Positions 1-15,435 of a stretch of 16,547 nt of DNA are shown here, in pieces. Below the pieces are notes generated by a model that saw nothing but the letters and a program-made list of their open reading frames with translations, did not search any database and was not told the DNA's origin. The position numbers and the translations under genes are program-made. Source of the stretch: Escherichia phage JLBYU27. Each line of letters begins with the position of its first letter. The stretch's first letter is position 1. The stretch lies in sequence record OK272475.1; one strand, given 5' to 3'.

Positions 1-26
1 ATCGAAATCCTTTGAGTTGTGAGCAT
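1..26 (-). CDS. 5' end of an unidentified gene running off the window (partial)
   Basis: ATG at 26..24 on minus strand downstream of the scaffold-gene terminator; only 8 codons (MLTTQRIS) visible. By synteny it could be the capsid gene that normally follows a scaffold gene. Confidence 0.2.
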
Positions 27-66
27 TCGCCCAGTACCGTTAATGTTACCTTAGATTTACGCGCTC

Positions 67-90
67 GCAAAATCGCCCGCTTTAGCGGGC
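67..90 (-). terminator. rho-independent terminator after scaffold gene
   Basis: Perfect inverted repeat GCCCGC-ttta-GCGGGC (75-90); on minus strand the stem is followed by GATTTTG. Sits immediately 3' of the scaffold stop (98-100). Confidence 0.45.
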
Positions 91-97
91 AATGTGC

Positions 98-802
98 TTA
101 CTCGTCGTCGCCCATCTTAGCGATAATATCCCCGGCCTGTTTCGTCAGGTCAGTGATGCCGAAGCTATGGCCCATCGTAATTTTGGGCTTCATATCTTCG
201 ACAACATGCGTCGGTTTGCTGGGCGCACCACCGGCTGGCGTGCCAGCCAGGACGGATGCAAAATCGGCGTTATTACGGAACTCTTTTTCAAGCTCTTCCA
301 TAGTCAGCGCGGACGGTTTGCCATCCTGCAAGACTCGCACTTTCAAGCTGCCGTCTTCGCCGTCTTCCAGCGTCAGGCGGTCCATTACGTGGCGTTGCAT
401 GATTCCAGCATTCTTACCGAACAGCTTCGAGGCCAAATCTTTGGCAGCGCTGCCGATGGTTAGATCGTGGATCTGCTTGCGGTAGGCTTCGATTTTTCCC
501 GATGTGTCTGCTTCGTGTTTCGCAAACTTATCTTTCCAGGACTTGTCGATCGCTTCGAGGTCGCCATTTTTGCGCGCTGCGGCTTCCTCTTTCTCTTTCG
601 CAAGGCGCTCAGCTTCGGCGCGGCGTTCTGCTTCTGCTTTCTTCTCGCTAACCAGCTTCGCGTTATTGTCTTTCAGACCCTTGATCTCCGCCTGTACTTC
701 TTCGGCGGTCATGAACGTTGATTTATACCCGTCACCATCGGCAACAAAAAGCGCCTTCATACCTTCCGGCAACGCGTCATATTCTGCTTTAGTAAGTTTC
801 AT
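98..802 (-). CDS. putative phage head scaffolding protein (234 aa)
   Basis: ATG at 802 with GGGGGA Shine-Dalgarno 4-6 nt upstream (the longer ORF-track form starts at a GTG at 850). Highly charged, Ala/Glu/Lys-rich coiled-coil-like sequence (AEAERRAEAERLAKEKEEAAARK). Located after the portal and head-morphogenesis genes. Confidence 0.55.
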   Translation of the reverse strand: MKLTKAEYDALPEGMKALFVADGDGYKSTFMTAEEVQAEIKGLKDNNAKLVSEKKAEAERRAEAERLAKEKEEAAARKNGDLEAIDKSWKDKFAKHEADTSGKIEAYRKQIHDLTIGSAAKDLASKLFGKNAGIMQRHVMDRLTLEDGEDGSLKVRVLQDGKPSALTMEELEKEFRNNADFASVLAGTPAGGAPSKPTHVVEDMKPKITMGHSFGITDLTKQAGDIIAKMGDDE

Positions 803-891
803 GCTATCCCCCTGGGATTGTGGCAAAGCGGGCCACCCGCTTGACTTCACGCCTTAATATTATCAGCGATAAAAATAATCGCAAAATTCGC

Positions 892-921
892 TTGCATTGC
901 GGATGTTGGTTGCATTATATT
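892..921 (+). promoter_or_regulatory. sigma70-like promoter for the plus-strand clamp-like gene
   Basis: -35 TTGCAT (892-897), 18 bp spacer, -10 TATATT (916-921); leader GGTTGCGCACCAACAACGAGGAA contains the RBS. The same -35/-10 hexamers and a near-identical leader recur on the minus strand at 10679-10735. Confidence 0.4.
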
Positions 922-950
922 GGTTGCGCACCAACAACGAGGAAATGACA

Positions 951-1463
951 ATGATTAAAGTTAACTATGCCGATCTTAAAGCCGCTATGATGTGCGCCGC
1001 AACTAATGACGTGCGATACTATCTGAACGGTGTATTTTTCGACGAGAAAGGATTCATCGTGTCCACCGACGGACATCGCTTGTTCTGCGGGTCCGCGGTT
1101 GTTCCCGAAGGTGAAAGTAAAATAGTAGCAATTAAAGGCCGCTTACCTACTAAATTCGAATATTGCAACATAGACGGCACCTCCGCTGCGTTCTTTGATA
1201 GTAAAGACGTATTAATCGGTACCATACCCGTAGAGATCATAGACGGCCGATTCCCAGACTGGCGTAGATTTACGTCTTTCGACAGCGCTAAAGTGGAGGC
1301 TATAGGGTTTGCCGGGGTGTACCTGTCCGACGCCTGCAAAATTGCTAAATTGTTCGACCGTAAGTTTGATAGCTTAAAACTGGAATTTCAGGGAGTAGAC
1401 AAGGGGGCACGTGTGCTGTTCAAAGGCGGTGCCTTCCTTGTTATCATGCCGATGCGCTTGTAG
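951..1463 (+). CDS. truncated DNA polymerase III beta sliding clamp (DnaN) homolog, domain II plus shortened domain III (170 aa)
   Basis: ATG at 951 with GAGGAA 7-8 nt upstream. Protein contains DVRYYLNG, TDGHRL and DGRFPDWRR and ends in VIMPMRL, matching conserved E. coli DnaN motifs as recalled (DVRYYLNG, TDGHRL, DGRFPDYRR, C-terminal VVMPMRL). No equivalent of DnaN domain I. Opposite strand to all neighbours, with its own promoter and a terminator. Confidence 0.75.
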   Translation: MIKVNYADLKAAMMCAATNDVRYYLNGVFFDEKGFIVSTDGHRLFCGSAVVPEGESKIVAIKGRLPTKFEYCNIDGTSAAFFDSKDVLIGTIPVEIIDGRFPDWRRFTSFDSAKVEAIGFAGVYLSDACKIAKLFDRKFDSLKLEFQGVDKGARVLFKGGAFLVIMPMRL

Positions 1464-1468
1464 CTAAC

Positions 1469-1501
1469 GAAAAAGGGGCCATTACGGCCCCTTAATTATT
1501 T
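1469..1501. terminator. bidirectional rho-independent terminator between convergent genes
   Basis: Stem AAGGGGCC (1473-1480) / GGCCCCTT (1486-1493), loop ATTAC; A-run upstream and AATTATTT downstream on plus strand, so a U-tract follows the hairpin on either strand. Lies between the clamp-like gene stop (1463) and the Rz1-like gene stop (1482). Confidence 0.6.
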
Positions 1502-1712
1502 GCTGCAACTCCAACACCTGCGCCCTCAGCTTAGCACCGCACTCCATATTTTTAACATCAATCATCAAATCTTCGTCGGGGTCCGCAGACGGGCTATCGA
1601 ACTTGCACGGCGGTCGCAGTGCCGACTCCGTTAGCGGCATCAACGGCGCGTTGCTTGATCCGCACGCGCTCAGCATCAAAACTACAATCAGGGCGGTTAG
1701 GGCGCGTAACAT
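1482..1712 (-). CDS. putative o-spanin (Rz1-like outer-membrane lipoprotein, 76 aa)
   Basis: ATG at 1712 with AAGAGG RBS. N-terminal signal peptide with lipobox LSAC; proline-rich mature part containing Cys. The gene starts inside the upstream Rz-like ORF in another frame and extends beyond its stop (overlapped spanin architecture). Confidence 0.5.
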   Translation of the reverse strand: MLRALTALIVVLMLSACGSSNAPLMPLTESALRPPCKFDSPSADPDEDLMIDVKNMECGAKLRAQVLELQQIIKGP

Positions 1713-1923
1713 ATTTTACAACCTCTTTTGTGATAGTCCGGTATTCCACGTCGCGGGCTTGTTCTGCCTGCACGGAGCGCTCAATTACTTTAGTTTGCTG
1801 CCGTTGGGCTTCGGCTTGCGCTTCTTGCGCCGCCTCAGCCACTACGCCAGCGCGATAGGAGTCACCAAGCCAGAATCCTACCGCCAGACCTATAACCAGT
1901 CCAATAGCCGCATACTTAATCAC
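1594..1923 (-). CDS. putative i-spanin (Rz-like, N-terminal TM helix plus Ala/Gln/Glu-rich helical region)
   Basis: No in-frame ATG; GTG at 1923 (GGGGG RBS, overlaps the stop of the upstream gene) or TTG at 1953. N-terminal hydrophobic segment IKYAAIGLVIGLAVGFWLG followed by AEAAQEAQAEAQRQQ, one Cys near the C-terminus. Contains the embedded Rz1-like gene. Confidence 0.45.
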   Translation of the reverse strand: MIKYAAIGLVIGLAVGFWLGDSYRAGVVAEAAQEAQAEAQRQQTKVIERSVQAEQARDVEYRTITKEVVKYVTRPNRPDCSFDAERVRIKQRAVDAANGVGTATAVQVR

Positions 1924-3019
1924 GCCATAACCCCCGGTTTTTAAGCTGCGCAATAGTCATTAGTTCGCCTGAATCGGTGAACATCTTCGGGACTTTCACG
2001 CCGCGCATAATCTGGTCGGCGCGTTGCACCCCGTATAATTCTTCCAGGATATGGCGCGGCTGGCGCTGCACCCATGAGAAGAAATCAGTCTGCGCGTCGA
2101 CCTGCTCACTCAGCAATCGGCCCGCGTCAGCCTTCAGTGCCGGACGCTTACCACTGGGCCAATCTTCCATGCCTTTAACCTTCCACGTCTCCGTCGACCG
2201 GCAACAATAATGCAACTTGCCCGGACCAGCGCCATATTGTGACCCAGCCACCATTTTCCCGCCGCGCTTTCCTTTGGTGTCGGGAGTAACATCAACCGGA
2301 TAAAACAGGCGATCGCGTAGCTGGCACATGGGAGAAGTATGCGTGTCCAATGTAGATAACCATTGGCGACCTTCGAGAATATCGTCATTTGCTTTTACCA
2401 TTAGTTCGCGGGCGGTCGCCGCATAGTGGTTGACTGCCGACTTAACAACGCTTGAGATAGCTTGCGCACTACGACCGCCGAGCGCGCGCCTCACGTCCGC
2501 TATAATTTCCATAGTCGGCTTGCCCTGGATGAATCCGGCGCGCACCTGATTGCCGATCTGCGTTCTGGTCCATTCTGAAAGTGAATCGGGCCATTGCATC
2601 ATCGTATTACCCAGGAACGGGTTTTTCATCGCAGTCGCTGCGATCTGCGCACCTGTCACTACGCCCACCACCTCGACCGCAGGTACGGCGACCACCGGCT
2701 GGATCGCTGCCGTTAATGTGTCGGCGAGATAATCGGCCTCGGTGTCGGCAAACTCCTGAAGGCTTTCAGCCAACACCTTAAACTCGGTGCGCAGTTCCGT
2801 TTTGACGGTCTTGTCCAGTTGCGTCAACAGTGTGGTAAGTGCCTTGTTGCTCATGGTCTTTTTGCCATCAAGTAACTCGGTCAGCTTACCCAGTAGCGTG
2901 GGCCGGAACTTCTCCCACATAGCCAACACCCTCCGCGCCTGGTCATTGCTCAGGCGCTGGGTGAAGATGTGCCGGCGAATCATTCGATCCGCCATATATT
3001 GATTAATTGTCTTCGCCAT
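1916..3019 (-). CDS. phage head morphogenesis protein (Mu F / SPP1 gp7 family-like, 367 aa)
   Basis: ATG at 3019, overlaps the portal gene 3' end by 17 nt. Contains the family-typical block TLDTHTSPMCQLRDRL ... GKLHYCCRST (D.HT/S ... H.CCR). Position directly after the portal gene. Confidence 0.75.
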   Translation of the reverse strand: MAKTINQYMADRMIRRHIFTQRLSNDQARRVLAMWEKFRPTLLGKLTELLDGKKTMSNKALTTLLTQLDKTVKTELRTEFKVLAESLQEFADTEADYLADTLTAAIQPVVAVPAVEVVGVVTGAQIAATAMKNPFLGNTMMQWPDSLSEWTRTQIGNQVRAGFIQGKPTMEIIADVRRALGGRSAQAISSVVKSAVNHYAATARELMVKANDDILEGRQWLSTLDTHTSPMCQLRDRLFYPVDVTPDTKGKRGGKMVAGSQYGAGPGKLHYCCRSTETWKVKGMEDWPSGKRPALKADAGRLLSEQVDAQTDFFSWVQRQPRHILEELYGVQRADQIMRGVKVPKMFTDSGELMTIAQLKNRGLWRD

Positions 3020-4523
3020 TGTCCGCTACCTCGTCCGGGTCTTCGTCGGTAGATTCTACCGCATCCGGGGACATTTGAGGCAATGGATTCTGATTTCGCA
3101 ATTCGTCTTCCACCTGCTCAACGGTTTGCGAGTCATCAATGACGCCCTGGGCCATCATCCACTTTATAAAGTCCGCCAGACGGACCGTACCGGTCTGCAC
3201 ACCAGCCATCATTGCGGTCATAAGCTGTGCGTCAACCGTGATTTCGGTGTAGAACTTATTCAGCGTTACACGTTGATCTGCGGTGTCGCCAGTGAACAGC
3301 TTGACGATTTGCAGCGCACGGTTGAAAGCCTTCTCAACGTTACCGGCAATCAGCGACAGGATACTGTTATCAGTCTGCGCATCGTAGGCCGCTTCAGTTG
3401 CCGTCTTAGGTGCGGTCCCCTTCTCGACCAGGGCAGCGCCCAGTTTAGCCATTTGCAACTCGCGTCGCTCACACAGCGCAACTGACAGGTTTCTCTCCTC
3501 CGCCTGAAGCAGTTTAGCGTCCATGTTCTGGCCCAGGATAACGCCCTTAGTTGCCCCGAGCGCGATGCCTCCCTTCAGGTTTTTATCAGCCCATGATTGG
3601 GTAAGACCGGTTGCAATGAGAGTAGGTTGACCCACGATGTGCGCAATCTCGGCGACGTCCGCTTCGGCGTTGTAGTGCTTAATGTTGATGGACGCAATAT
3701 CCGCCAGCGGTGCGGCGTCCGGTGTCGCGTTGTTGTCCACCGCGCCACACCAGCAAAATGGCAGTTGAGTAAGCGCATTACCGGCGGCATCCACCAGTGG
3801 CACAAGGTCGGTGCGGGTGAATCCCCGCGGCAAGTCCATTTGCACCTCGGACGTGTCCGCGTTGTAATACCAGCGGCGACCGTGTGCCACACCGTTAATC
3901 ATGCGAAGCTCGGTCCAGATTGTAACTTTGTGGTTTGCGAAGTCGTCCGGGTCTTCGGTGCTGATTTCGTCCGTTTCCTTCAGCACAATTAGCGTATCGA
4001 CGCCGTGGGTCTGCCGCCAGTTGATGATCTGTTCTGCCGTGTACAGGCGTATAAGCGGGCGGTGTGACGCCATTTCAGCGGCTGTCTGCGGCACTACGTT
4101 ACCCAGTTCATCAAAGTTAGCCTGGCGGTCGTAGTCCACCATAAAGCCAGCGCGGCCCGATTGCAGCACTTCCGACATAGCGCCGCGCAGGAGTTGCGCC
4201 AGTGGCATCCCGCTGCCGTCTACGTCATCAATCAGGTCAGCCATTGCCCCGGAAAGGTCCATACTCACCGGTTTGGCGAAGGCGACACCTAACAGTGCAT
4301 TCAGTGTGCGGGCGGTGGCGTTCAGGAAGACAGCACGTTGCTTATATGCCTTATAGCGCGCACGCGATTTCGGGTCAGTGGTGTCGCCGCTGGCTGGGTG
4401 TGGCAGGTACAAGGGGCCGCACGCCTTCACGGCGCGCTCCCCTGCTACACAATCACGGATCATTTTCCACTCTGGCGAGATGCGCGCATAGAGCGGGTGC
4501 TGGTTGTCAACGTTAACGGTCAT
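3003..4523 (-). CDS. phage portal protein (506 aa)
   Basis: ATG at 4523 with AAGGAA RBS 8 nt upstream. 506 aa with a strongly acidic C-terminal tail (DEDPDEVADNGEDN). Sits between terminase large subunit and head morphogenesis protein. Confidence 0.7.
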   Translation of the reverse strand: MTVNVDNQHPLYARISPEWKMIRDCVAGERAVKACGPLYLPHPASGDTTDPKSRARYKAYKQRAVFLNATARTLNALLGVAFAKPVSMDLSGAMADLIDDVDGSGMPLAQLLRGAMSEVLQSGRAGFMVDYDRQANFDELGNVVPQTAAEMASHRPLIRLYTAEQIINWRQTHGVDTLIVLKETDEISTEDPDDFANHKVTIWTELRMINGVAHGRRWYYNADTSEVQMDLPRGFTRTDLVPLVDAAGNALTQLPFCWCGAVDNNATPDAAPLADIASINIKHYNAEADVAEIAHIVGQPTLIATGLTQSWADKNLKGGIALGATKGVILGQNMDAKLLQAEERNLSVALCERRELQMAKLGAALVEKGTAPKTATEAAYDAQTDNSILSLIAGNVEKAFNRALQIVKLFTGDTADQRVTLNKFYTEITVDAQLMTAMMAGVQTGTVRLADFIKWMMAQGVIDDSQTVEQVEDELRNQNPLPQMSPDAVESTDEDPDEVADNGEDN

Positions 4524-4534
4524 GGTTGGTTTCC

Positions 4535-5920
4535 TTAGTAGAAGTCTACGGTTGGAACAACGGCGATCGGTCGAATCACAGGGAACAGGTGCGCAACAGG
4601 ATAGCCCGCGGCGTCGTTCATGTGGTCCACACCGGCAGTTTTATCCGGCTCGCCTTTCTTCAGGTCATAAACCTGCTGTTCCAGACATTTCGCTAGTGTA
4701 GGGCATTTATCCAGGTTGACAAAATACTGGCGCACGCCCTTCGAGTTGCACATCATCGTATTCATCGCGATCAATCGGTCTTTCACTGGCGGGTTAACGC
4801 TGTCATATTCCACATTGAAGCCAGCATCTTCCAGTTGCGCGATATCGGACGACGACGCGTTGACCGTTTTGCGGGATTTTCCGCTGCTATCCGGGTAAAC
4901 GACTACCCTACCGGCGGCACAATGTTCGGGATAGCGCTCCTCGATCGCCTCAATCATAGCCGGGGTGTCAAACAGGTCCACGAATTCATCCACGGCGTGA
5001 ATCTCGTCGCGGAACTCCTTGTTCTCGGTGGTACGCTGCCGTCTTACATACACGACCGCCGCCATTTTCGTGACGTTAAAGTCCATACCGATAATCAGCG
5101 TGTCGTCCGGCTGCACTTCTTCGGTGCTGGCGTTCTCCTCGCGATTAAACATCTTGTACACCGCGCCCGACGTAAGGTTAACAAACAGGCCGTTCAGGTA
5201 CGCATCAATCAGGTTAGCCGGGTACTGACTGCGAAGCGTGTCGATAAAGTCTGCTGGTAAATGGTGGTTGTCTGTGGTCTTCGCCCGGATCAAGCGTTTC
5301 TGGCTGTCCTTCTCCACCTCGAAAATTTGGTACATCGCCCGGTAGCCTTCAGGCGTTGACACGATGACGAACTGGCGGACGAAGCCCGCACGCAGACGAC
5401 CTAGCAGTTTGTGATATGCCGCCAGCGCGACGTCTTGTTTCGTGGTGTCGAACTCGTCGGCAACAATCCACGCGGCGTTGACCCCGATCAGGCGGGTATA
5501 GTTCTCCATTGATTCACAGATCACGCGGGTCCATTTGCCTTTCACCAGAACGCTATAGATCTTGTCCTGCTTGTTGAACTTCCACCGGAAGCCAGCCTCG
5601 TCGAAAGCCTTTTCCAATTCCGGATACATGATTTTAACCAGGAGTGGAATAGTCGGTTCGGTAACGATGCCGTCATGACCTGGGTTCAGTGTGAGAAGCT
5701 GGATTACCTTACGGGCTGCGACCCATGACTTGCCGCCGCCGAAGCCGGAGCACAGGCCGAGGATTTTAGTCTTCGTGTCCCGTAGTAGTTCGACCTGGTG
5801 CGGTAGGCAATCAGGCTGGTAAAGACGCACCGCCTGCGCAACGCGCGTAGGGCGTGGCGGTCGGTTGCGCTTTGCGATCGCGCGCTCCAGTGCGCGGTGT
5901 TCTGCCGCATAGTTACGCAT
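4535..5920 (-). CDS. terL: terminase large subunit (461 aa)
   Basis: Walker A-like LGLCSGFGGGKS and Walker B-like WIVADEFD in the N-terminal ATPase region; C-terminal nuclease-like region (LIIGMDFN ...). Start ATG at 5920 overlaps the terS stop (TAATG). Confidence 0.9.
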   Translation of the reverse strand: MRNYAAEHRALERAIAKRNRPPRPTRVAQAVRLYQPDCLPHQVELLRDTKTKILGLCSGFGGGKSWVAARKVIQLLTLNPGHDGIVTEPTIPLLVKIMYPELEKAFDEAGFRWKFNKQDKIYSVLVKGKWTRVICESMENYTRLIGVNAAWIVADEFDTTKQDVALAAYHKLLGRLRAGFVRQFVIVSTPEGYRAMYQIFEVEKDSQKRLIRAKTTDNHHLPADFIDTLRSQYPANLIDAYLNGLFVNLTSGAVYKMFNREENASTEEVQPDDTLIIGMDFNVTKMAAVVYVRRQRTTENKEFRDEIHAVDEFVDLFDTPAMIEAIEERYPEHCAAGRVVVYPDSSGKSRKTVNASSSDIAQLEDAGFNVEYDSVNPPVKDRLIAMNTMMCNSKGVRQYFVNLDKCPTLAKCLEQQVYDLKKGEPDKTAGVDHMNDAAGYPVAHLFPVIRPIAVVPTVDFY

Positions 5921-6492
5921 TAATCACCCTGACCTTTGCCGGTAGGTTCCACAACGACGTCGCCGTTATCATCTTCGTCGTCATCCAGCGGTACATCGTC
6001 GCGGACGCCGTGGTTTGCTTTAAGCAGGAATGTAGCGAAGCCTGCCGCGATGGTCACGCCGCCAGCTTCCATCAGGAAGGTTTTCTGCAGTTCCATAGCG
6101 TCCGCCATCGCCTCGGCGAACTCCTCATGTGCGCGCGCCCAGCGATACAGGCAAGCTACGCCCACACCGATTTCCGCGGCAAATCGTCCGAAGGTTGGCA
6201 TTTTGTTGCGAGGGATTACTTGCGCAGCGCCTTTATCGGAGTAGTTGACCTGCCAGGCGTCGGCGTCGGCAAAATAGCGGCGAAGCTGGTCGCAGTAAAC
6301 GGATCTGTAGTCAGTAGGGCGCCCACATTTGCCACCTTTACGGCGCTTGCCATACTCGATCTCGGGTCCAAGATTGGTGTGTTCTGTTTGCTCGCCTGGT
6401 TTACGGCGCGGGGTTACTGCTACTCGTCCGTCCAGTTTGGCGCGTCGGCCCTTAACTTTGATTTCTGCCATGATATAAGCCCTTTTGTTCAT
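5920..6492 (-). CDS. terS: terminase small subunit (about 190 aa)
   Basis: Translationally coupled to terL. Contains the HTH-like block TFGRFAAEIGVGVACLYRWARAHEEFAEAMADAMELQKTFL typical of small terminase subunits. Start taken as ATG 6492; ATG 6471 (AAGGG RBS) is an alternative; the ORF-track start at 6570 is a non-ATG codon and less likely. Confidence 0.7.
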   Translation of the reverse strand: MNKRAYIMAEIKVKGRRAKLDGRVAVTPRRKPGEQTEHTNLGPEIEYGKRRKGGKCGRPTDYRSVYCDQLRRYFADADAWQVNYSDKGAAQVIPRNKMPTFGRFAAEIGVGVACLYRWARAHEEFAEAMADAMELQKTFLMEAGGVTIAAGFATFLLKANHGVRDDVPLDDDEDDNGDVVVEPTGKGQGD

Positions 6493-6541
6493 ATGCGCCG
6501 ACCATCGGCAACATAGGAGACGGCCCTGCCATCTAATGGGG

Positions 6542-6575
6542 ATTATAACAGGCGCAAAAAAGCCCACCAAATCGG
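6542..6575 (-). promoter_or_regulatory. candidate promoter for terS overlapping the upstream terminator
   Basis: Perfect -10 TATAAT on minus strand (complement of 6542-6547), 17 bp spacer, weak -35 TTGGTG. Confidence 0.3.
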
Positions 6576-6580
6576 CAGGC
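6556..6580 (-). terminator. putative rho-independent terminator after the metallophosphoesterase gene
   Basis: On minus strand: GCCUGCC-GAUUU-GGUGGGC followed by UUUUUU (stem includes two G.U pairs). Lies 22 nt after the stop at 6602. Confidence 0.4.
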
Positions 6581-6601
6581 TGGGAGGATTACGGGTTGCC
6601 G

Positions 6602-7744
6602 TTACTTCAACATTTCCGGGCTAATGGTTAAGCGCGCTACTTCGCCGTAGTTGGCGCTATAGGTAATGACGTTGGCACTACGACCGGACATCCAACCACC
6701 GCGGCTGGCGTAGGCGTCTTTCGCTGCGAGGGTCCGGTGCTGTTCAACAATCATGTTACGGGATTCTACAATCTTCTGGTGGTGCAAGTGGCCTACGTGC
6801 GCGTAGCTGTACTCACTGGCCCCGAAAGCCTGTCTGAATTTAGAAATCATGACGGTTTCGATAGCGTCAAAGCGCGCTTTATGCCCGTGGTGGAAAAATA
6901 GCGTGGTCTTGCCGTGCTGCACCATTTTGTAGACGTCCGGGGACGTATCCACATCGACGCGCGGCTCGTTCTCGTACAGCGTGTTGAACATCTCAGCAAG
7001 CCAAATCATGCCCGACTCATCATGATTCCCCTGGACGATTAGCAGTTTGACTTTGTGGTGTTTTTGCAGGGCAAGTTCGACGACGTTGCGCACCATGCGA
7101 ATCATGTATCGGACCAGTTTCTGGTATCGGGTGTCCGCGTCCAGTATGTGACCACTTGCCGGAGTGACAGCATCGAGGCTATCAAAGTGGGCCATATCAC
7201 CGAGGATATTAATTACGGCAGTGCCTGCGTCCGGGGCGCGGGCGAAGGCTTCGACAAACCAGCGGTAGAACAGGTCTTCGGCTATCGCCATATCCCAGTC
7301 TTCGCCAGTCTCCTCGCCCCATGCCAACATGCCCAGGTGGAAGTCTGACACGGTGTACAGGTTGAGTAAGTCGAGCGCCTGGATCGGTACTGGCGGGGCG
7401 TTTACTGGCGCTGCCGGTGTGATTTCGCTGTTCATACCCTCGACAACAGCGCGCATAGCTTCGAGTTGGCGCTCCTTGTCCTGCTCAGTGATAACCCACG
7501 ACATGACCTCTTCGCCATTGCCGCGCACCAGGGCCGATACGCGCTTAACGCCGAAGCCATCGGCAACGCGCTGGCGGATTACGGCGTCGTTGCCGTGCCC
7601 AATTCCTTTTTTCGATAGGCGGGCTTTCCGCATGTAGACGTTTCGGAGGGACAAACCGTACTTCTTAGAAATCTCTTTCGATGTAGCGCCGGATTGTAAT
7701 TCAGCAATCAATTGCTCGTCTGTGATTTTAGTTTGCGGGTGCAT
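6602..7744 (-). CDS. HTH domain fused to a calcineurin-like metallophosphoesterase (380 aa)
   Basis: ATG at 7744 with AGGAAG RBS 6 nt upstream. N-terminal HTH-like segment (TSKEISKKYGLSLRNVYMRKARLSKKG). Metallophosphatase signature motifs in order: DFHLG, GDMAHF, GNHDE, HHGHK, GHLHH. Own promoter and flanking terminators. Confidence 0.75.
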   Translation of the reverse strand: MHPQTKITDEQLIAELQSGATSKEISKKYGLSLRNVYMRKARLSKKGIGHGNDAVIRQRVADGFGVKRVSALVRGNGEEVMSWVITEQDKERQLEAMRAVVEGMNSEITPAAPVNAPPVPIQALDLLNLYTVSDFHLGMLAWGEETGEDWDMAIAEDLFYRWFVEAFARAPDAGTAVINILGDMAHFDSLDAVTPASGHILDADTRYQKLVRYMIRMVRNVVELALQKHHKVKLLIVQGNHDESGMIWLAEMFNTLYENEPRVDVDTSPDVYKMVQHGKTTLFFHHGHKARFDAIETVMISKFRQAFGASEYSYAHVGHLHHQKIVESRNMIVEQHRTLAAKDAYASRGGWMSGRSANVITYSANYGEVARLTISPEMLK

Positions 7745-7769
7745 AATTACTTCCTGATTATGGGACCGG

Positions 7770-7805
7770 GGACAATATATCACGGGACTTATCGAGGCGG
7801 GCAAT
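7770..7805 (-). promoter_or_regulatory. extended -10 promoter-like element for the metallophosphoesterase gene
   Basis: Minus strand reads CGTGATATATT (TG-n-TATATT) flanked by GTCCCG / GTCCCCGG motifs; possible weak -35 TTGCCC 19 bp upstream. Confidence 0.35.
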
Positions 7806-7830
7806 AAAAAGCCCGGATAATACCGGGCTT
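7802..7830 (-). terminator. rho-independent terminator ending the lysis operon
   Basis: 8 bp stem AAGCCCGG / CCGGGCTT with 6 nt loop; on minus strand followed by TTTTTATT. Located 7 nt after the stop of the 55-aa ORF. Confidence 0.7.
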
Positions 7831-7836
7831 GATTGT

Positions 7837-8004
7837 TTACGCTGCAGGACCAGATTCTTCCTGCGGTGGTGGGCTTGGCAGCTTCGCATCGAAGACCCCA
7901 GCGTGGCTGATAGTGTCCGCGATGATAGCGCGTGCCCCAGGATCTTCGGTTTTAGCCAGTGCGGCAAGCGCGTCCGCATTATGATCAAGAATACTTTTCA
8001 ACAT
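7837..8004 (-). CDS. hypothetical small protein (55 aa) downstream of endolysin
   Basis: ATG at 8004 with GAGGGGA RBS about 7 nt upstream. No TM segment or lipobox, so not a spanin. The longer ORF-track form (to 8241) would overlap the endolysin gene and is not favoured. Confidence 0.4.
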   Translation of the reverse strand: MLKSILDHNADALAALAKTEDPGARAIIADTISHAGVFDAKLPSPPPQEESGPAA

Positions 8005-8020
8005 ATCGTGTCCCCTCGTA

Positions 8021-8512
8021 TTATGCTGCGTTACGACCGATTCGCTCGGCAACGTCCCACTGCTTACCGTCAAACAACGCCTGTCTGCCGATTGCACGAC
8101 GGACAAGCCCCTTAAGCACTGCCCCGCCTTGCTTGCGGAATTGTGGCAGTGTAGCCCGGACTTTTGCCCAGTCACCCAGGCGGACAGCATCGTCGAAGTC
8201 ACCGGCGACGTCGTCCGGCATGATCGGACCAGGGCCTGCATTGATGACCAGATCCACCAGCGCGTCGAATTGCGCTTGATTAATGCTCGGATGTGCGTAT
8301 TTGTTCACCCAGTCCTCGGCATACGCCACATCGCGCTTGAGCAGTGCCAGCGCTTCCTCGCGGGTAATGCTTCTAGGCGGATTAGTGCCAGTATGACCAT
8401 AACCCCAGGTGTACAGGCCGCGGGCCTGCTCTTTCTTGGTCGCGAAATATGGCACCGGGCTGAAAGCCTCCCAGGCTGCCGTAAATCGTAGACCGTTATC
8501 ACTGAATCGCAT
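8021..8512 (-). CDS. endolysin, phage lysozyme (163 aa)
   Basis: ATG at 8512. Lysozyme-like N-terminal block (LYTWGYGHTG) and C-terminal RRAIGRQALF resembling lambdoid phage lysozymes. Immediately follows holin-like genes. Confidence 0.8.
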   Translation of the reverse strand: MRFSDNGLRFTAAWEAFSPVPYFATKKEQARGLYTWGYGHTGTNPPRSITREEALALLKRDVAYAEDWVNKYAHPSINQAQFDALVDLVINAGPGPIMPDDVAGDFDDAVRLGDWAKVRATLPQFRKQGGAVLKGLVRRAIGRQALFDGKQWDVAERIGRNAA

Positions 8513-8744
8513 GTTTTACCCCATTCAAAACAGCATTACGCAGGGTGCGCAATGCAAACAGCCAGATTAACGCGGTCCAGGTGGTATCAGACACGTCTCC
8601 TGTTTGCAGCAACCCGATAAAACAGACCATTGCCGTTAACAGATACAGCACCCGACCGAAAATGCCATCCTGGACGGACGGCGCATACACGTTAAACAGG
8701 GACGAAGCCCCTATGATAACAAACAACAGGACGGAGATAATCAT
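8499..8744 (-). CDS. small membrane protein in lysis cassette (holin-like / antiholin candidate, 81 aa)
   Basis: ATG at 8744 overlaps the holin stop (ATGA); 2-3 predicted hydrophobic helices; overlaps the endolysin start by 14 nt. Confidence 0.5.
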   Translation of the reverse strand: MIISVLLFVIIGASSLFNVYAPSVQDGIFGRVLYLLTAMVCFIGLLQTGDVSDTTWTALIWLFALRTLRNAVLNGVKHAIQ

Positions 8745-9031
8745 TTTGCACCCCCCGGAAGTCGGAACGACGCAATAGTCCCCCGGATCCGGTCGGCGAT
8801 TGGCATCCAGAAGATGGCAGTTACGAAGCCCAAACCGGCGACAGTGCGCTCGCCAGACAAACCAGACCACTCGGCGATAGCTGGCGCACCAAATATGGCA
8901 CACAGGAAGCCAACCACGATATATAAAACGAAGTTCAACGGCCCTTTCGTTGCCTCGCCATGAATGCGTGCGCCTACGAAGCCACCAGCAAGACACGCAA
9001 TGGCGAATAACCACTCGTTTAGCTTATCCAT
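8741..9031 (-). CDS. holin (96 aa, three hydrophobic segments)
   Basis: ATG at 9031. Three hydrophobic stretches (WLFAIACLAGGFVGA, FVLYIVVGFLCAIFGAPAIA, GLGFVTAIFWMPIA) and a charged C-terminus. First gene of the holin / endolysin cluster. Confidence 0.7.
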   Translation of the reverse strand: MDKLNEWLFAIACLAGGFVGARIHGEATKGPLNFVLYIVVGFLCAIFGAPAIAEWSGLSGERTVAGLGFVTAIFWMPIADRIRGTIASFRLPGGAK

Positions 9032-9083
9032 AAAAAAGTCCCAGTAAGTTTTAGCTCACTGGGACTATATCACGCTTGCATAA
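9032..9083 (-). promoter_or_regulatory. terminator-like hairpin with embedded extended -10 element immediately upstream of holin
   Basis: Perfect 9 bp inverted repeat AGTCCCAGT (9037-9045) / ACTGGGACT (9058-9066) with 12 nt loop; on minus strand followed by TTTTTT then the holin ATG. Minus strand also reads TTATGCAAGCGTGATATAGT (TG-n-TATAGT) overlapping the upstream arm. Confidence 0.45.
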
Positions 9084-9371
9084 TTAATCGAAAATGGACC
9101 ACTTGCCGACGTCTTTCCACGCCCACCCGGATGATCGGACGGCTTCGAATGTTCGACCGCCTATCATATCCCGATACCACAGCCACCACATGCGCAACCT
9201 GGTCGGGTGCTCCGTGATTCCACGGCGCTTGTAGATCTCGAACGTCATGCGGGTAATGCTGGCGGCTTCCACAGCAGGCCATACTACGAACATCAGGACA
9301 CCCAACAGCACCGCGGTAAGCAGACACAGCCCGCAGATCAAACCAAACCAATATATCAAATCGTGTAGCAT
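9084..9371 (-). CDS. hypothetical membrane protein (95 aa, one N-terminal TM segment)
   Basis: ATG at 9371 with GGAAGGGG RBS 8 nt upstream. Hydrophobic N-terminus (IYWFGLICGLCLLTAVLLGVLMFVVW) then a Trp/Arg-rich soluble part. Confidence 0.5.
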   Translation of the reverse strand: MLHDLIYWFGLICGLCLLTAVLLGVLMFVVWPAVEAASITRMTFEIYKRRGITEHPTRLRMWWLWYRDMIGGRTFEAVRSSGWAWKDVGKWSIFD

Positions 9372-9492
9372 CGTATTGCCCCTTCCGGTTTGCCAATATG
9401 GCGCGCCCATGCACGCGCCACGAAGTAATTGCGAAATACCCGACCGCCTATCTCGAAGCGGTTATGCTGAAGCATATCACGGATCGTCGCAC

Positions 9493-9966
9493 TCATTTCA
9501 GAATCACCGAGCGCGGGTCGATGGCTTTCATGCTGCCGTCACGTTCGACCCGGATGAATCCGACGCCGTATTCCTGCGCATGGCGCTGTGCGTTTGTCAC
9601 GGCATCCGCTATGGCGCTCGATCGCTCATGCGGCTGGCGATCCCGAAGGCTGTATTTGCGACCCACTCGCTCGTAATTTACGAGGCCGAAGTAAGTCATA
9701 CCGGCGACGCCATCCTTGCGGGATTGCATACGCAGGCCATGAAGCCCGACATATTCAACGATCCACATACTACCGTCGCGAATATCACGCAGCACATCGC
9801 CGCGCGCAATATCGTGGGTCAGTACGTCAAAGTTTTCATACAGCCCGTCTTTCTTCGCCCACCAAACCCGACTGCCTGCTGCGTTTTGCAGGCGGACGTA
9901 GGAATCCAGGGTCTGTATTGGCGTAAGGATGCACCCGTCATGCTTGCGGCGGAATAGTAATTTCAT
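9493..9966 (-). CDS. hypothetical protein (157 aa), unassigned; candidate late regulator
   Basis: ATG at 9966 with GAGGAGA RBS; start overlaps the stop of the upstream small ORF (ATGA). No motif I can assign. Confidence 0.55.
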   Translation of the reverse strand: MKLLFRRKHDGCILTPIQTLDSYVRLQNAAGSRVWWAKKDGLYENFDVLTHDIARGDVLRDIRDGSMWIVEYVGLHGLRMQSRKDGVAGMTYFGLVNYERVGRKYSLRDRQPHERSSAIADAVTNAQRHAQEYGVGFIRVERDGSMKAIDPRSVILK

Positions 9967-10097
9967 TGCTCTGTCTCCTCGATCTCTTCGATAGTCTTCG
10001 TGTCGCCATCGCATACCGTAGCGATGCCGTTTTGTTTGTAGTCAAGTTCGCACATATGCAGGTAGATAAACTCCTGCGAGAATCCGCCTATCAACAT
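9963..10097 (-). CDS. hypothetical small protein (44 aa), uncertain
   Basis: ATG at 10097 with GGAGA about 9 nt upstream; coupled to the downstream gene. The same frame extends upstream to a GTG at 10268, overlapping the 90-aa ORF in a different frame. Confidence 0.3.
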   Translation of the reverse strand: MLIGGFSQEFIYLHMCELDYKQNGIATVCDGDTKTIEEIEETEQ

Positions 10098-10363
10098 CTG
10101 CTCAGTCTCCAGTGTTTGCCCACCCGCTCGACTGCGGGCTTTCGGCGTAATGTAATACGTATTCCCATTGGTAGCAAGGAAGTCCGCACCCTGAAATCGT
10201 GTTGTGCTGCGAACTGGCGCAAGTAGCGGGTCTGCGTTAATGGCTTCACATCGTCGCGATAGCGCCACAGCACAGAATCGCCCTCAATCGCATTCTTAGC
10301 CCATATTCGTATGCAATGCAGGGTAATGCGCCACGAAAGCTGTTTCGCGCGTCTGCGGTCCAT
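10091..10363 (-). CDS. hypothetical basic protein (90 aa)
   Basis: ATG at 10363 with AAGGGG RBS 6 nt upstream, 10 nt after the stop of the 101-aa gene. Arg/Lys/Trp-rich. Confidence 0.45.
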   Translation of the reverse strand: MDRRRAKQLSWRITLHCIRIWAKNAIEGDSVLWRYRDDVKPLTQTRYLRQFAAQHDFRVRTSLLPMGIRITLRRKPAVERVGKHWRLSRC

Positions 10364-10372
10364 TTTGGCCCC

Positions 10373-10678
10373 TTATTTCGCAAGCTGGGCGAATAGTTCG
10401 CGCTGGGCTTTAATCCGGGCGACGTTTGCCACTGCCGTCTCGCCAATACTGAAGAGATATGCCAGGCGCTCACGGGAGAATGCTTTGGCGTATTCGTGAA
10501 TCGCCACACGCAACGGCTTCAGTTCGTCCAGGCTGGCGTCCATGCGGTAGAGCGCATCCCTAATTGATTGGTGCGCCAGAATAGCAATCTGAAGCGCGGC
10601 GTCTACGCTGCCGTTAAGTGCCTTCGCTTCGTCCAGCTTTGCCACGGCCAGGGTGTAATTCCAGATTAGTGCTTTCAT
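10373..10678 (-). CDS. hypothetical helical protein (101 aa), first gene of the operon upstream of the lysis genes
   Basis: ATG at 10678 with AGAGGA RBS 7 nt upstream, directly downstream of the sigma70-like promoter at 10707-10735. Confidence 0.55.
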   Translation of the reverse strand: MKALIWNYTLAVAKLDEAKALNGSVDAALQIAILAHQSIRDALYRMDASLDELKPLRVAIHEYAKAFSRERLAYLFSIGETAVANVARIKAQRELFAQLAK

Positions 10679-10699
10679 CGTTCAGTCCTCTTGTTGGTG

Positions 10700-10740
10700 T
10701 GCAACCAATATAGCAGTGTGCCAGGCAGGATGCAACCAAT
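10700..10740 (-). promoter_or_regulatory. sigma70-like promoter with extended -10, flanked by two ATATTGGTTGCA direct repeats
   Basis: Minus strand: -35 TTGCAT (10735..10730), 17 bp spacer, TGcTATATT (10715..10707). The 10-mer ATATTGGTTGCA occurs twice (complement of 10701-10712 and 10731-10742). Leader is near-identical to that of the clamp-like gene. Confidence 0.45.
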
Positions 10741-10945
10741 ATTAATCACGCGTATGAAAAAGTTGATCGCTATCTGCTGAAACTGCAAACTGCATTTTTC
10801 ACTTTCCATTCTGCATCGCGCATTGGTTGCCGAGTTCATCGCCGACCGCAATTTGCATCATGTTGCCGTGGATTATGCAATCCCGGATTTTATGCAGTCT
10901 CAGACGAGGGGGGTGACAGACCCCCCGTCTAGTCTGAAAGACTGG

Positions 10946-11210
10946 GGTGCTGTCCCGCTGTCCCGATCGGCTAAACCCCGCGGCAGCACTGGCGGGGACA
11001 GGGTGCTGTCCCGCTTTGTCCCGCCCCTGGTCTGTCCCGCTTTTTGTCCCGCTTAGTTTATGCACGAAAACAGAATAGATATTCACATTTTGGGGGTGGG
11101 ACAGATCGGGACAGCACCCCTGTCCCGTTTTTAATTTATGCAATGTTGGTGGGTAAATATGCAGTTTTTAGAGGTGCGGGATAGAACGGGACAAAACGGG
11201 ACGTCCCGCC
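10946..11210. repeat. iteron-like array of at least 12 copies of TGTCCCGC / GCGGGACA in both orientations
   Basis: Forward copies at about 10951, 10959, 11007, 11017, 11033, 11045, 11121; inverted copies at about 10993, 11097, 11106, 11176, 11186; a perfect 12 bp palindrome CGGGACGTCCCG at 11197-11208. Longer unit GGTGCTGTCCCGC recurs three times. Interspersed AT-rich TTTATGCA motifs. One hairpin CGGGACAG-caccc-CTGTCCCG is followed by TTTTT. Confidence 0.8.
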
Positions 11211-11222
11211 TGTACCGCTTCG

Positions 11223-11547
11223 TTATGCGGGGTTCTGCCGCGCCATTTCATCCAGCGCAACGCGTTCCATTAGCTTGATATCTTTAAACGCACGTTGCGC
11301 GTTTTCGATGCCGTGCATCTTAAATAGCCATTCCAGTACGCCGTAGTCGATGCCGTATGCGCCGCCGAATCCGGTACGCCATTGCGTGGCGCAATCGGTG
11401 AAGACTGCGACTATCTTCGCATTGTCGGGCCATATTGCAACAGGCGGACAAACATCTTCGGGGGCCGCACCCCATAAACTTGCGGCTAAATCTTCGGAGG
11501 GTGGCGGCGGGCCATAAAAGCGTCGCGCCGCCTCAATTAGTTTTTTT
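11223..11547 (-). CDS. -1 frameshift extension of the tail assembly chaperone (GT-like T domain, about 107 codons)
   Basis: A7 slippery run (plus-strand T7 at 11541-11547) lies immediately before the G-gene stop; by hand translation the -1 frame stays open from there to a TAA at 11225..11223 (KKLIEAARRFYGPPPPSEDLAASLWGAAPEDV ... KLMERVALDEMARQNPA). Confidence 0.5.
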
Positions 11548-11899
11548 CACGCAGGCCCATCAGTTCGAGATAGTACGACGTGTGGAACACACCGAACGCG
11601 CGAGGGTAGTTAACCACCAGGCGGCGGACGTTCTCCGCGTTAAATTCATCTGGCAGATTCCAGCCTTCAGCGACGTGCATGATGGCCTCGACCATAACGT
11701 TAAAGCCTTCCGGGTCGTTGTCGTCGTATTCCGACAGCTTGCGCTCCGTGTCCTGCATGGTCTGCGAAAATTCGTCGATCGGGCGGTGGCGTACGGTAAA
11801 CGTCATTTTGCCTGGTTCGTTCTCACCAGGGCGCGGGATCTCAATCGGCAGCTTAAAGGTAGGCTTAGGGTCAAGTGTAAAGAGTGGTGCTTTAGCCAT
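11537..11899 (-). CDS. tail assembly chaperone (lambda G-like, 120 aa)
   Basis: ATG at 11899 with GGAG RBS; acidic small protein immediately downstream of the major tail gene; ends ...GLREKN with the A7 slippery site in the last codons. Confidence 0.6.
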   Translation of the reverse strand: MAKAPLFTLDPKPTFKLPIEIPRPGENEPGKMTFTVRHRPIDEFSQTMQDTERKLSEYDDNDPEGFNVMVEAIMHVAEGWNLPDEFNAENVRRLVVNYPRAFGVFHTSYYLELMGLREKN

Positions 11900-11913
11900 T
11901 GTAGTATTCTCCA

Positions 11914-11938
11914 ATAAAAAAGGGGCCGTGCTGGCCCC
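11914..11938 (-). terminator. rho-independent terminator after the major tail gene
   Basis: Stem GGGGCC / GGCCCC with loop of 5 nt; on minus strand followed by TTTTTTATT. Sits between the major tail stop and the chaperone RBS. Confidence 0.65.
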
Positions 11939-11968
11939 ATATTATCACCCGCTATTTAAGCGACCAAA

Positions 11969-12694: not shown

Positions 12695-12749
12695 AATATC
12701 CTCCTAAATCAATAGATTACAGTATTTGCAGCCTGAGACATTTCAGGTC

Positions 12750-12778
12750 TTGACTAATCATACCACCAACGGTACTAT
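12750..12778 (+). promoter_or_regulatory. sigma70-like promoter for the plus-strand HNH-like gene
   Basis: -35 TTGACT (12750-12755), 17 bp spacer, -10 TACTAT (12773-12778); GGAG RBS at 12801 and ATG at 12810. Confidence 0.4.
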
Positions 12779-12809
12779 CCACAAAAATCGTTAATCAACT
12801 GGAGCGGAT

Positions 12810-14415: not shown

Positions 14416-14416
14416 G

Positions 14417-14891: not shown

Positions 14892-14892
14892 A

Positions 14893-15393: not shown

Positions 15394-15407
15394 TTTATTT
15401 GCTCCTA

Positions 15408-15435
15408 TAAAAAAAGGCGGGCTTATGCCCGCCCC
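15408..15435 (-). terminator. rho-independent terminator after the putative major capsid gene
   Basis: Stem GGCGGGC / GCCCGCC with loop TTAT; on minus strand followed by TTTTTTT. 18 nt after the stop at 15453. Confidence 0.7.

Follow-up and report, generated by a model that had tools for sequence, protein, structure and literature searches.

A truncated beta sliding clamp of Escherichia phage JLBYU27 that may serve as a free-standing copy of the clamp-binding-motif pocket

The window analysed here, a stretch of 16,547 nt from Escherichia phage JLBYU27 (OK272475.1), encodes a 170-aa homologue of the beta sliding clamp DnaN, which we term the mini-clamp. It is a DnaN derivative of one and a half domains, comprising domain II and the second half of domain III. 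These are exactly the pieces that together form the hydrophobic cleft for QLxLF-type clamp-binding motifs, and we propose, at a probability of roughly one half, that the mini-clamp is a ring-less copy of the clamp pocket that binds motif-bearing partners, as a decoy or as an adaptor.

The mini-clamp gene and its regulatory signals

The mini-clamp gene is an ORF on the + strand with alternative starts at 897, 945 and 951 and an end, stop codon included, at 1463. The ATG at 951 yields a product of 170 aa (18.9 kDa, pI 8.3, charges +23/-21), and it is at the equivalent Met that the homologues begin. A Shine-Dalgarno sequence, GAGGA, can be read on the + strand at 939-943, 7 nt before this ATG. 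The alternative ATG at 945 yields 172 aa, the form annotated in phage TheodorHerzl. The four motifs from which an earlier note on this DNA, made from the sequence alone, had recognised the ORF at 951-1463 are all present in the 170-aa product: DVRYYLNG (residues 20-27), TDGHRL (39-44), DGRFPDWRR (98-106) and VIMPMRL (164-170). Moreover, the gene does run against the surrounding head cluster, as had been described, being antisense to all neighbouring genes: scaffold (98-850), spanins (1482-1953), MuF-like (1916-3019) and portal (3003-4523), all on the - strand. Orthologues from Dhillonvirus have dN/dS values of 0.15-0.39 in all pairs with a dS of at least 0.06 and are under purifying selection.

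The earlier note had also credited the gene with its own promoter. A strict sigma-70 consensus scan found none upstream of the mini-clamp gene; what stands is a putative promoter read from the sequence on the + strand (892-921), with a -35-like TTGCAT (892-897), an 18-nt spacer and a -10-like TATATT (916-921). This TTGCAT-N18-TATATT arrangement is kept in TheodorHerzl, EP23 and SECphi4, in the last of which it precedes Nmad5, and it probably has promoter function. Overlapping the -10 is a conserved 20-bp element, TATATTGGTTGCGCACCAAC (916-935, +), that contains an imperfect palindrome, TTGGT-N5-ACCAA. The element occurs exactly twice in the window, against 0 copies expected from shuffles, and once in the rest of TheodorHerzl. 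Its second copy (10693-10712, -) is directly upstream of ORF 10373-10678 (-), which opens a series of small genes, their functions unknown, that extends to the lysis and packaging genes; TTGCAT-N17-TATATT also stands before this copy, the twin cassette being at 10693-10740. At the other end of the gene, a GC-rich hairpin, GGGGCC-loop-GGCCCC (1473-1493; -16.9 kcal/mol, z = -3.1), lies between the mini-clamp and o-spanin genes, which converge on it, and scans as a terminator in both directions, in agreement with the bidirectional terminator that had been noted.

Homology to DnaN and domain composition

The similarity of the mini-clamp to DnaN is well above chance level. A phmmer search of the PDB matched approximately 20 beta clamps (E 1.5e-7 to 4e-7), and E. 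coli DnaN scored 114 bits against the mini-clamp family profile. The AlphaFold2 model is compact (pLDDT 94.7), and its structural matches are clamps only, with beta-alpha-beta-beta-beta repeats that superpose on solved clamps. Structure prediction, one of the checks suggested by the earlier note, agreed with a clamp fold. The outcome of the profile check against the DnaN domain models was mixed: the Pfam central domain, DNA_pol3_beta_2 (PF02767), matched at 23.8 bits, below its curated cut-off of 27, and the Pfam scan gave no match to PF02768 (domain III). The NCBIfam dnaN model (TIGR00663) scored 25.5 bits against an equivalog cut-off of 137.65, a shortfall of more than 100 bits. Domain I had no match to PF00712 in the Pfam scan and the mini-clamp starts at the equivalent of E. 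coli residue ~132, so that the description as a stand-alone truncated DnaN homologue without domain I is borne out.

From the alignments and the secondary structure of the model, residues 1-107 (951-1271, +) correspond to domain II (E. coli about 132-247). This domain is the region where the family profile aligned to E. coli 138-253 and beyond, with 93.6 bits. In the subgroup to which the JLBYU27 mini-clamp belongs, the second, channel-lining helix of domain II has become a loop in the model. Residues 108-170 (1272-1460, +) correspond to the second beta-alpha-beta-beta-beta repeat of domain III (E. coli about 313-366). Searched by themselves against the PDB, the last 70 residues gave no significant match, and a family block profile was needed to tell which half of domain III remains: it scored 27.8 bits against the second half (III-b, E. 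coli 313-365), 4.2 against the first (III-a) and at most 2.3 against the other four DnaN half-domains. The shortening of domain III, already remarked upon, is likewise evident in the 64 residues that follow RFPDWRR, compared with 120 in E. coli DnaN.

The dimer interface of beta is formed by I78 and F106 on one side and by I272, L273 and E298-E304 on the other (PMC11139829). Both of these segments are missing from the mini-clamp; with domain I and the first half of domain III absent, it has lost the ring-closing interface on both sides. With half of domain III gone, core surface is expected to be exposed, a hint of a partner or of self-association.

The clamp-binding-motif pocket is retained

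The pocket of beta consists of 18 residues (PMC11139829), all of which map inside the segments that the mini-clamp has kept (E. coli 152-247 and 320-365). Fifteen of the 18 are identical to E. coli DnaN, as against 31% identity overall (Fisher p = 1.3e-6). One of the differences, V247F, is conservative; the others are N320A and V344D, the latter at a position that the same review gives as non-conserved (PMC11139829). In mini-clamp numbering, pocket residues are R22, L25, T39, G41, H42, R43, L44, P102, R106 and F107 in the domain II part, and Y124, V164, M166, P167, M168 and R169 in the domain III part. Among 236 family members the most conserved columns are R152 (233/236), G174 (234), P242 (233) and T172 (225), followed by M362 (219), P363 (218), H175 (215), Y323 (215) and R365 (210), a conservation that partly reflects homologue detection and the structural roles of Gly and Pro, the pocket motifs being also the most conserved in true DnaN. 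Judged from these alignments, the mini-clamp has kept the clamp-binding-motif cleft, with both subsites I and II. Delta binds monomeric beta ~50-fold tighter than the dimer (PMC11139829), and therefore the pocket of a monomer is a competent, even preferred, site for at least one partner.

Family, distribution and genome context

Residues 1-170 of the mini-clamp align to positions 2-186 of the 190-position phrog_3007 profile (E 5.6e-54), which on alignment makes it a full-length member of that family, together with EP23p08, bas14_0007 and Bcep781 gp15, from which we note no difference. The PHROG label of the family, 'RusA-like Holliday junction resolvase', is unsupported: a Pfam scan (E <= 10) returned DNA_pol3_beta_2 only, with no match to a RusA family, and every structural match was a clamp. 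GenBank already names the gene 'DNA polymerase III beta subunit' (EP23p08, bas14_0007), and 'DNA Pol III b subunit fragment' is noted in the record of Bcep781 gp15. The view that half-clamps are an uncharacterized phage function thus holds in part: the searchable literature yielded no functional work on truncated phage clamps, but the gene had been named.

The JLBYU27 protein is 89-97% identical to those of EP23, TheodorHerzl and SO-1. The family comprises 1,878 cluster representatives at E <= 1e-3 (clusters at 50% identity); nearly all of the best 150 representatives are 160-230 aa long, and a structure search returned many short viral matches. Longer relatives (P0249, P0205, P0070 and P0105) carry low-complexity tails only, with no informative added Pfam domain. 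A homologue is present in 244 phage records, and the phages, both virulent and temperate, infect enterobacteria, Burkholderia, Acinetobacter, Vibrio and other hosts.

The gene was found in 15/154 Dhillonvirus-like records. As roughly 90% lack it, the mini-clamp is accessory in this group. The slot it occupies is variable: downstream of a shared cassette there is either the mini-clamp or Nmad5, or the two together, with Nmad5 in most; in EP23 the two genes are adjacent. Across 79 mini-clamp loci there was one clear match to Nmad5 (EP23) and one marginal match. A functional link between the two was rejected, as they are not generally linked outside Dhillonvirus.

Kagunavirus and Burkholderia phage Bcep781 have the gene in the same antisense position, and this speaks for long residence, not for a recent insertion. 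In temperate relatives the mini-clamp is an ordinary early or replication-operon gene. One group has the order CI | CII, mini-clamp, replication protein O and DnaB helicase; in another the mini-clamp is found beside a DUF2800 nuclease and an Enc34-type ssDNA-binding protein. The earlier note had read the layout as that of a classic moron. The terminator and the variability of the slot in Dhillonvirus are in keeping with this, but the shared position in Kagunavirus and Bcep781 and the replication-operon setting in temperate phages are not.

A proposed docking site for clamp-binding motifs

We propose that the mini-clamp would not encircle DNA and would instead present the docking site in soluble form. 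Encirclement is not expected because domain I, the first half of domain III and, in this subgroup, one channel helix are lost. Its gene probably has a promoter of its own and would be transcribed apart from the surrounding late head operon; the protein would bind others that carry clamp-binding motifs. Candidate host partners may include the Pol III subunits alpha, epsilon and delta, Hda, Pol II/IV/V and MutS/L; alternatively, the partner may be a phage or a defence protein. The mini-clamp might then compete with host beta for its partners, as a decoy, or might hold them for use by the phage, as an adaptor. We infer peptide binding by the pocket, the identity of the ligands, the timing of expression and the effect on host or phage replication.

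No canonical QLxLF or QLxLxF motif was detected among the ORFs of the window and those in the remainder of TheodorHerzl. Looser matches, judged unconvincing, were QLMLY in the DUF2800 nuclease, an internal site in TerL and QLNLY in a helicase; the first of these is the QxxxY catalytic motif of the nuclease, which a distant relative has as QLQLY. Lambdoid relatives that rely on host Pol III would seem to harm themselves by making a pure decoy for its subunits, and therefore the ligand may be more specific.

Comparison with known clamps and alternative functions

Host DnaN is the closest point of comparison, with homologous sequence and fold and an almost residue-for-residue identical cleft. It differs in length (366 aa vs 170) and in possessing domain I, the first half of domain III and the channel helix that the mini-clamp lacks; the mini-clamp also misses the DnaN equivalog cut-off, and a ring was not predicted in a low-power fusion model. 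A clamp that does without domain I has a natural precedent in beta*, reportedly a UV-inducible 26-kDa internal product of dnaN covering residues about 135-366 (attributed to Skaliter, Paz-Elizur and Livneh, J Biol Chem 1996), which is said to be functional as a clamp, apparently in trimeric form. Like the mini-clamp, beta* starts at the beginning of domain II and ends in MPMRL; however, it has the whole of domain III, and thus two full domains as opposed to 1.5. Known rings are built from 2x3 or 3x2 domains, an arithmetic into which 1.5 domains do not fit (PMC9690074). The herpesvirus factors UL42, UL44, PF-8 and BMRF1 have two full domains and bind DNA via a basic face, whereas the mini-clamp is near neutral, and they have no sequence relationship to the DnaN peptide cleft. 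Twort Gp168 (PDB 7evp) and Mu MuC (PMC12867686) illustrate how phages exploit the clamp interaction network. Both are ligands of the host clamp and are non-homologous to the mini-clamp, which follows the opposite logic in being a copy of the ligand-binding site.

The earlier note had suggested a clamp poison that pairs with a host beta protomer via a domain I/domain III-type interface and so stops ring closure. This is not supported by the block profile (III-b 27.8 vs III-a 4.2), as the interface residues I272, L273 and E298-E304 lie in the half of domain III that is absent. The opposite side of the interface, domain I, is wholly absent, and the domain II helix equivalent to the domain I interface helix is a loop in the JLBYU27 subgroup; we regard such capping as very unlikely. 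A role in phage replication, as a processivity or accessory factor that tethers the family-A polymerase or Pol III, either as a self-assembled ring or as a non-ring factor of the UL42/UL44 kind, is rather unlikely. Four copies of 1.5 domains would amount to six domain equivalents. A fusion of four copies joined by Gly-Ser linkers of 30 residues, modelled from a matched alignment of 14 sequences, gave an AlphaFold2 pTM of 0.31 and a mean pLDDT of 63.4 with no defined assembly, a low-power result given the shallow alignment, the linkers and the use of a monomer network. Further against a processivity factor are the near-neutral charge of the mini-clamp (pI 8.3, +23/-21), the loss of one channel helix and the finding of no clamp-binding motif in the phage polymerase. 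Moreover, ~90% of Dhillonviruses have the same polymerase and no mini-clamp, and lambdoid phages that encode no polymerase do have one. A particular form of ring, in which four copies, or two copies and one host beta protomer, make a DNA-loaded assembly of six domain equivalents with pockets on both faces, is geometrically conceivable because each clamp domain is pseudo-two-fold symmetric, yet we hold it to be highly improbable. Contacts in such an assembly would be made by the half-domain left exposed and by domain II through its free edge. If true, it would be a clamp stoichiometry never described, those known being 2x3 or 3x2 domains.

Alternatively, the slot could be an accessory hot spot and the mini-clamp a counter-defence or exclusion cargo unrelated to replication, which neutralises an immunity protein of the host or hides the phage from it; a clamp-binding motif might be what recruits that protein. 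In favour of this are the patchy presence of the gene (15/154 records) and the occupation of the same slot, behind the same upstream cassette, by Nmad5 in most Dhillonviruses, where point mutations in Nmad5 lead to escape from the Tmn defence system (PMC11846954). However, no family among the PADLOC-DB defence models matched the mini-clamp (0 at E <= 1), Nmad5 was clear at only 1/79 mini-clamp loci and marginal at one other, and the gene is part of replication operons in other phages. We consider this function unlikely. It would overlap with a free-standing docking site if the defence protein were the ligand of the pocket. Finally, the scores below curated family cut-offs and the word 'fragment' in one record (Bcep781 gp15) might suggest a non-functional relic, the decaying remnant of a captured host dnaN. 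This reading is effectively refuted by the dN/dS of 0.15-0.39, the compact high-confidence model, the gene's own ribosome-binding site and terminator, and the retention of the same truncated architecture across ~1,900 clusters (50% identity) and distant hosts.

Significance

The peptide cleft of beta is a hub for bacterial polymerases, the clamp loader, Hda, mismatch repair and many mobile-element proteins, and is an antibiotic target. The analysis corrects the 'RusA-like Holliday junction resolvase' annotation, an error that is spreading in RefSeq phage records. A practical test system exists in TheodorHerzl (Bas14 in the BASEL collection), which has the gene, whereas it is missing from most sister phages. 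If the proposal is correct, the mini-clamp would supply structural work on ligands and inhibitors with a naturally minimal pocket domain of 19 kDa. Moreover, if many phage lineages do carry a ring-less cleft, this may represent a widespread way for phages to tap or jam the clamp hub.

Identity and architecture of the mini-clamp

The mini-clamp, a truncated DnaN homologue of 170 aa, is encoded at 951-1463 (+). Two other in-frame starts exist (TTG at 897, ATG at 945); the start at 951 is favoured by GAGGA at 939-943 and by the homologues. All four DnaN-like motifs quoted in the earlier note are present in this ORF, and the similarity it pointed out was recovered by searches. phmmer against PDB sequences returned about 30 beta sliding clamps (E 1.5e-7 to about 2e-4), aligning mini-clamp residues 10-144 on E. 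coli DnaN from residue 140 onwards. A profile from 42 relatives gave 114 bits on E. coli DnaN, and the AlphaFold2 model from the same alignment was very confident (pLDDT 94.7, pTM 0.89). The protein did not reach the Pfam curated threshold (23.8 vs 27 bits) or the NCBIfam dnaN cut-off (25.5 vs 137.65). It differs from a sliding clamp in having no domain I, no full domain III, no interface residues and a score below the curated cut-offs; it is a homologue of DnaN, not a DnaN.

Residues 1-107 correspond to DnaN domain II, whose second helix has become a loop in the 170-aa subgroup. The last 63 residues form a single beta-alpha-beta-beta-beta unit. A profile of this C-terminal block, built from 236 relatives, was scored on each half-domain of E. 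coli DnaN (six in all): III-b, the second half of domain III (313-365), gave 27.8 bits, the first half (III-a) 4.2 and none of the other four more than 2.3. Since the block matches III-b and residues 1-107 match domain II, the mini-clamp comprises 1.5 domains; clamps in reviews have 2x3 or 3x2 domains only (PMC9690074). We regard this identity and architecture as near certain. The nearest known natural precedent is E. coli beta*, reportedly a UV-inducible C-terminal two-thirds of beta described in J Biol Chem in 1996, which starts at the same point but keeps all of domain III, whereas the mini-clamp keeps only III-b. In longer relatives of 190-230 aa in the family alignment (e.g. P0053, P0056, P0065, P0069 and P0100) the second helix of domain II is still present, and the MPxR motif is followed by a C-terminal tail with a recurring P/A-A-W-A motif; this tail could fold back into their own cleft or bind a partner.

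Retention of the clamp-binding cleft

In beta, 18 residues form the cleft for clamp-binding motifs (2024 beta clamp review, PMC11139829): R152, L155, T172, G174, H175, R176, L177, P242, R246, V247, V360 and M362 in subsite I, and H175, N320, Y323, V344, M362, P363, M364 and R365 in subsite II. All 18 fall within segments retained by the mini-clamp and 15 are identical, the changes being V247 to Phe, N320 to Ala (the family consensus is Asn) and V344 to Asp, at a position described as non-conserved (PMC11139829). Against 31% identity to E. coli DnaN over all 153 aligned columns, the cleft is enriched for identity (Fisher p = 1.3e-6), a figure to be read knowing that the cleft is also the most conserved part of real DnaN, so that homologue detection favours its residues, and that some of these (Gly174, Pro242) are structural. 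Cleft columns are moreover the most invariant ones in the 236 relatives, which average about 30% identity. The four motifs of the earlier note are, in effect, the cleft walls.

Family breadth and selection

Scanned exhaustively with HMMER, 1.84 billion cluster representatives yielded 1,878 matches at E <= 1e-3, the best 150 being almost all 160-230 aa long. By tblastn the gene was found in 244 phage records, with host genera including Salmonella, Escherichia, Klebsiella, Serratia, Vibrio, Burkholderia, Acinetobacter and Proteus. Foldseek against predicted viral structures retrieved dozens of 160-250-aa proteins, mostly unnamed or labelled 'DNA polymerase III beta subunit'. The mini-clamp is a full-length member of phrog_3007 (E 5.6e-54), named 'RusA-like Holliday junction resolvase', a relationship unsupported by any search run; many phage records of RefSeq and GenBank (EP23, SO-1, Bcep781, Bas81 and others) nevertheless carry the RusA-like label for this clamp-like family. 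Amongst six Dhillonvirus orthologues, every pair with a dS of 0.06 or more gave a dN/dS of 0.15-0.39, and the gene is functional.

Genomic context

The region is that of a Dhillonvirus, an HK578/EP23-like siphovirus of E. coli, a group encoding a family-A DNA polymerase, two helicases, an SSB and a DUF2800-like nuclease. Window positions 700-1800 share 94.6% identity with Escherichia phage TheodorHerzl (Bas14); for Shigella phage EP23 and Sodalis phage SO-1 the figure is 92-93%. Its TheodorHerzl counterpart, bas14_0007, bears the annotation 'putative DNA polymerase III beta subunit'; the sequence observation of the earlier note is correct and already mirrored in the databases. The bas14_0007 gene is flanked by the scaffold gene and by the o- and i-spanin genes, then MuF-like, portal and terminase genes, all on the opposite strand.

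The Dhillonvirus slot between scaffold and spanins varies in content. It holds the mini-clamp alone in this window, TheodorHerzl and SO-1, Nmad5 alone in most genomes (e.g. SECphi4), and both in tandem in EP23, rolling and WF5505. The mini-clamp is present in only 15 of the 154 matching records. Nmad5 (254 aa; PF18757, E 2e-58), at 2346-3110 of the EP23 locus and 1753-2517 of the SECphi4 locus, occupies the same slot as window 951-1463 and is absent from this phage; no linkage to the mini-clamp was found outside Dhillonvirus. Its point mutations K216E/K296E allow Dhillonvirus escape from the Tmn defence system, and attempts at cloning it failed, apparently owing to its toxicity; the Nmad5-deleted phage was viable (PMC11846954).

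The antisense position in the head module, in the MuF-like/scaffold-or-protease interval, recurs in Kagunavirus fFiEco03 (44% identity) and in Burkholderia myovirus Bcep781 gp15 (31% identity), whose record carries the note 'DNA Pol III b subunit fragment'. This argues for a long-standing arrangement rather than a recent acquisition. Bas81- and ZCKP8-like phages have the gene last in a short operon with a ParB/KorB-like protein, converging on the head genes. Two groups amongst 79 IMG/VR loci gave informative temperate contexts: in one the order is CI repressor | CII -> mini-clamp -> replication protein O -> DnaB helicase, whilst in the other the gene lies beside a DUF2800 PD-(D/E)XK nuclease and an Enc34-type ssDNA-binding protein. 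Taken together, these contexts show that the recurrent company of the mini-clamp is early and replication genes.

Expression signals and window structure

Where the mini-clamp and o-spanin genes converge, a hairpin (1473-1493) reads as a terminator-like structure on either strand, in agreement with the bidirectional terminator previously proposed. As for the promoter named in the earlier note, no strict sigma-70 match was found upstream of the gene, but a conserved cassette is present there on the + strand, comprising TTGCAT (892-897), 18 nt, TATATT (916-921), then GGTTGCGCACCAAC, GAGGA and ATG. Exactly two copies of the 20-bp core TATATTGGTTGCNCACCAAC are present in the window, at 916-935 (+) and 10693-10712 (-), with none expected by chance. 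The second copy has the same arrangement (TTGCAT-N17-TATATT), such that each has TTGCAT 17-18 nt before it and a ribosome-binding site and start codon after it; this copy directly precedes the first of a run of small genes leading into the lysis and packaging genes. Moreover, the 100 bp up to the start codon are the same whether the mini-clamp or Nmad5 follows. Judged from sequence, the cassette is a putative shared promoter or operator, probably early. The paired copies suggest that the slot for mini-clamp or Nmad5 is regulated together with the small gene that opens the rightward operon.

The order of the window departs from that of a full Dhillonvirus genome. Positions 1-6471 match TheodorHerzl 6467 down to 1, 6472-11064 match 43627 down to about 38637, and 10890-16547 match about 11459 down to 6468; therefore the window end runs on into the window start, leaving out about 27 kb that spans tape measure through replication genes. 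At the junction (10890-11064) lies a 175-bp sequence with two copies in TheodorHerzl at 90% identity. The picture is that of a circular assembly collapsed at a repeat, or perhaps of a genuine deletion circle. Inside the repeat, just past a strong hairpin at about 10900-10932, TGTCCCGC occurs in five exact copies within about 100 bp (10951-11052; 0.76 expected in the whole window). This iteron-like array therefore lies at two places in the full genome and could be a protein-binding or origin-like site. Adjoining the mini-clamp in the head module is the spanin pair, an o-spanin (1482-1712, lipoprotein signal LSAC) embedded within the i-spanin (1594-1953) on the - strand; holin and endolysin are about 6 kb off (about 8021-9014), and the lysis genes are therefore split.

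Proposed function

The mini-clamp keeps the complete cleft, has lost both ring-closing surfaces and one channel helix and carries an almost neutral net charge (pI 8.3), an anatomy that points to a soluble copy of the clamp docking site, a reading to which we give a probability of about 0.5. A monomeric cleft is competent, because the affinity of delta for a monomeric beta variant is about 50-fold that for the dimer (PMC11139829). Proteins bearing clamp-binding motifs would be the ligands of the mini-clamp, which would either compete with host beta for them or retain them for phage use. Twort Gp168 (PDB 7evp) and MuC of phage Mu are the reverse, being host-clamp ligands, whereas the mini-clamp carries the ligand site of the clamp. 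With MuC, disturbance of the clamp network was found to change DnaA control (PMC12867686).

No canonical clamp-binding motif was found in any protein of this phage. The only clamp-binding-like motif that appears plausible from sequence is QLNLY at residue 563 of the TheodorHerzl helicase bas14_0051 (754 aa; 25279-27543), past a Pro/Asp/Gln-rich stretch; it resembles QLNLF, the UmuC clamp-binding motif.

Other functions fare less well. Replication context and clamp fold would suit a ring or processivity factor, and herpesvirus UL42 and UL44 are clamp folds that work without a ring, by binding DNA; however, a four-copy fusion model, a test of low power, gave no support (pTM 0.31), and the gene is dispensable in most Dhillonviruses and present in phages without a polymerase, leaving this unlikely. 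Counter-defence cargo, suggested by the variable slot common to the mini-clamp and Nmad5, is a slimmer prospect given no match to defence models and the replication context in other phages, though it overlaps with the docking-site reading if the ligand is a defence protein.

The earlier note had proposed that a domain III without domain I could cap host beta. The beta dimer interface comprises Ile78, Phe106, Lys74, Arg96, Arg103 and Arg105 on the domain I side and Ile272, Leu273, Glu298, Glu300, Glu301, Glu303 and Glu304 on the domain III side (PMC11139829). Every one of these falls in segments absent from the mini-clamp; both sides being missing, capping loses its structural basis and is unsupported, and we consider it improbable. 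That the gene is a non-functional relic is scarcely credible, being refuted by selection and family breadth.

In summary, what the phage retains of the clamp is precisely the partner-binding cleft and little else. The family in which this is so is very large, uncharacterised and associated with early and replication genes, and the finding appears unreported in the searchable literature. Among lambdoid relatives that depend on host Pol III, an indiscriminate decoy is less plausible; more likely there is a selective ligand such as Hda, delta, a protein of repair or defence, or one of the phage. If the mini-clamp is a copy of the docking site, a phage with its own polymerase could use it to shut down host replication or repair.
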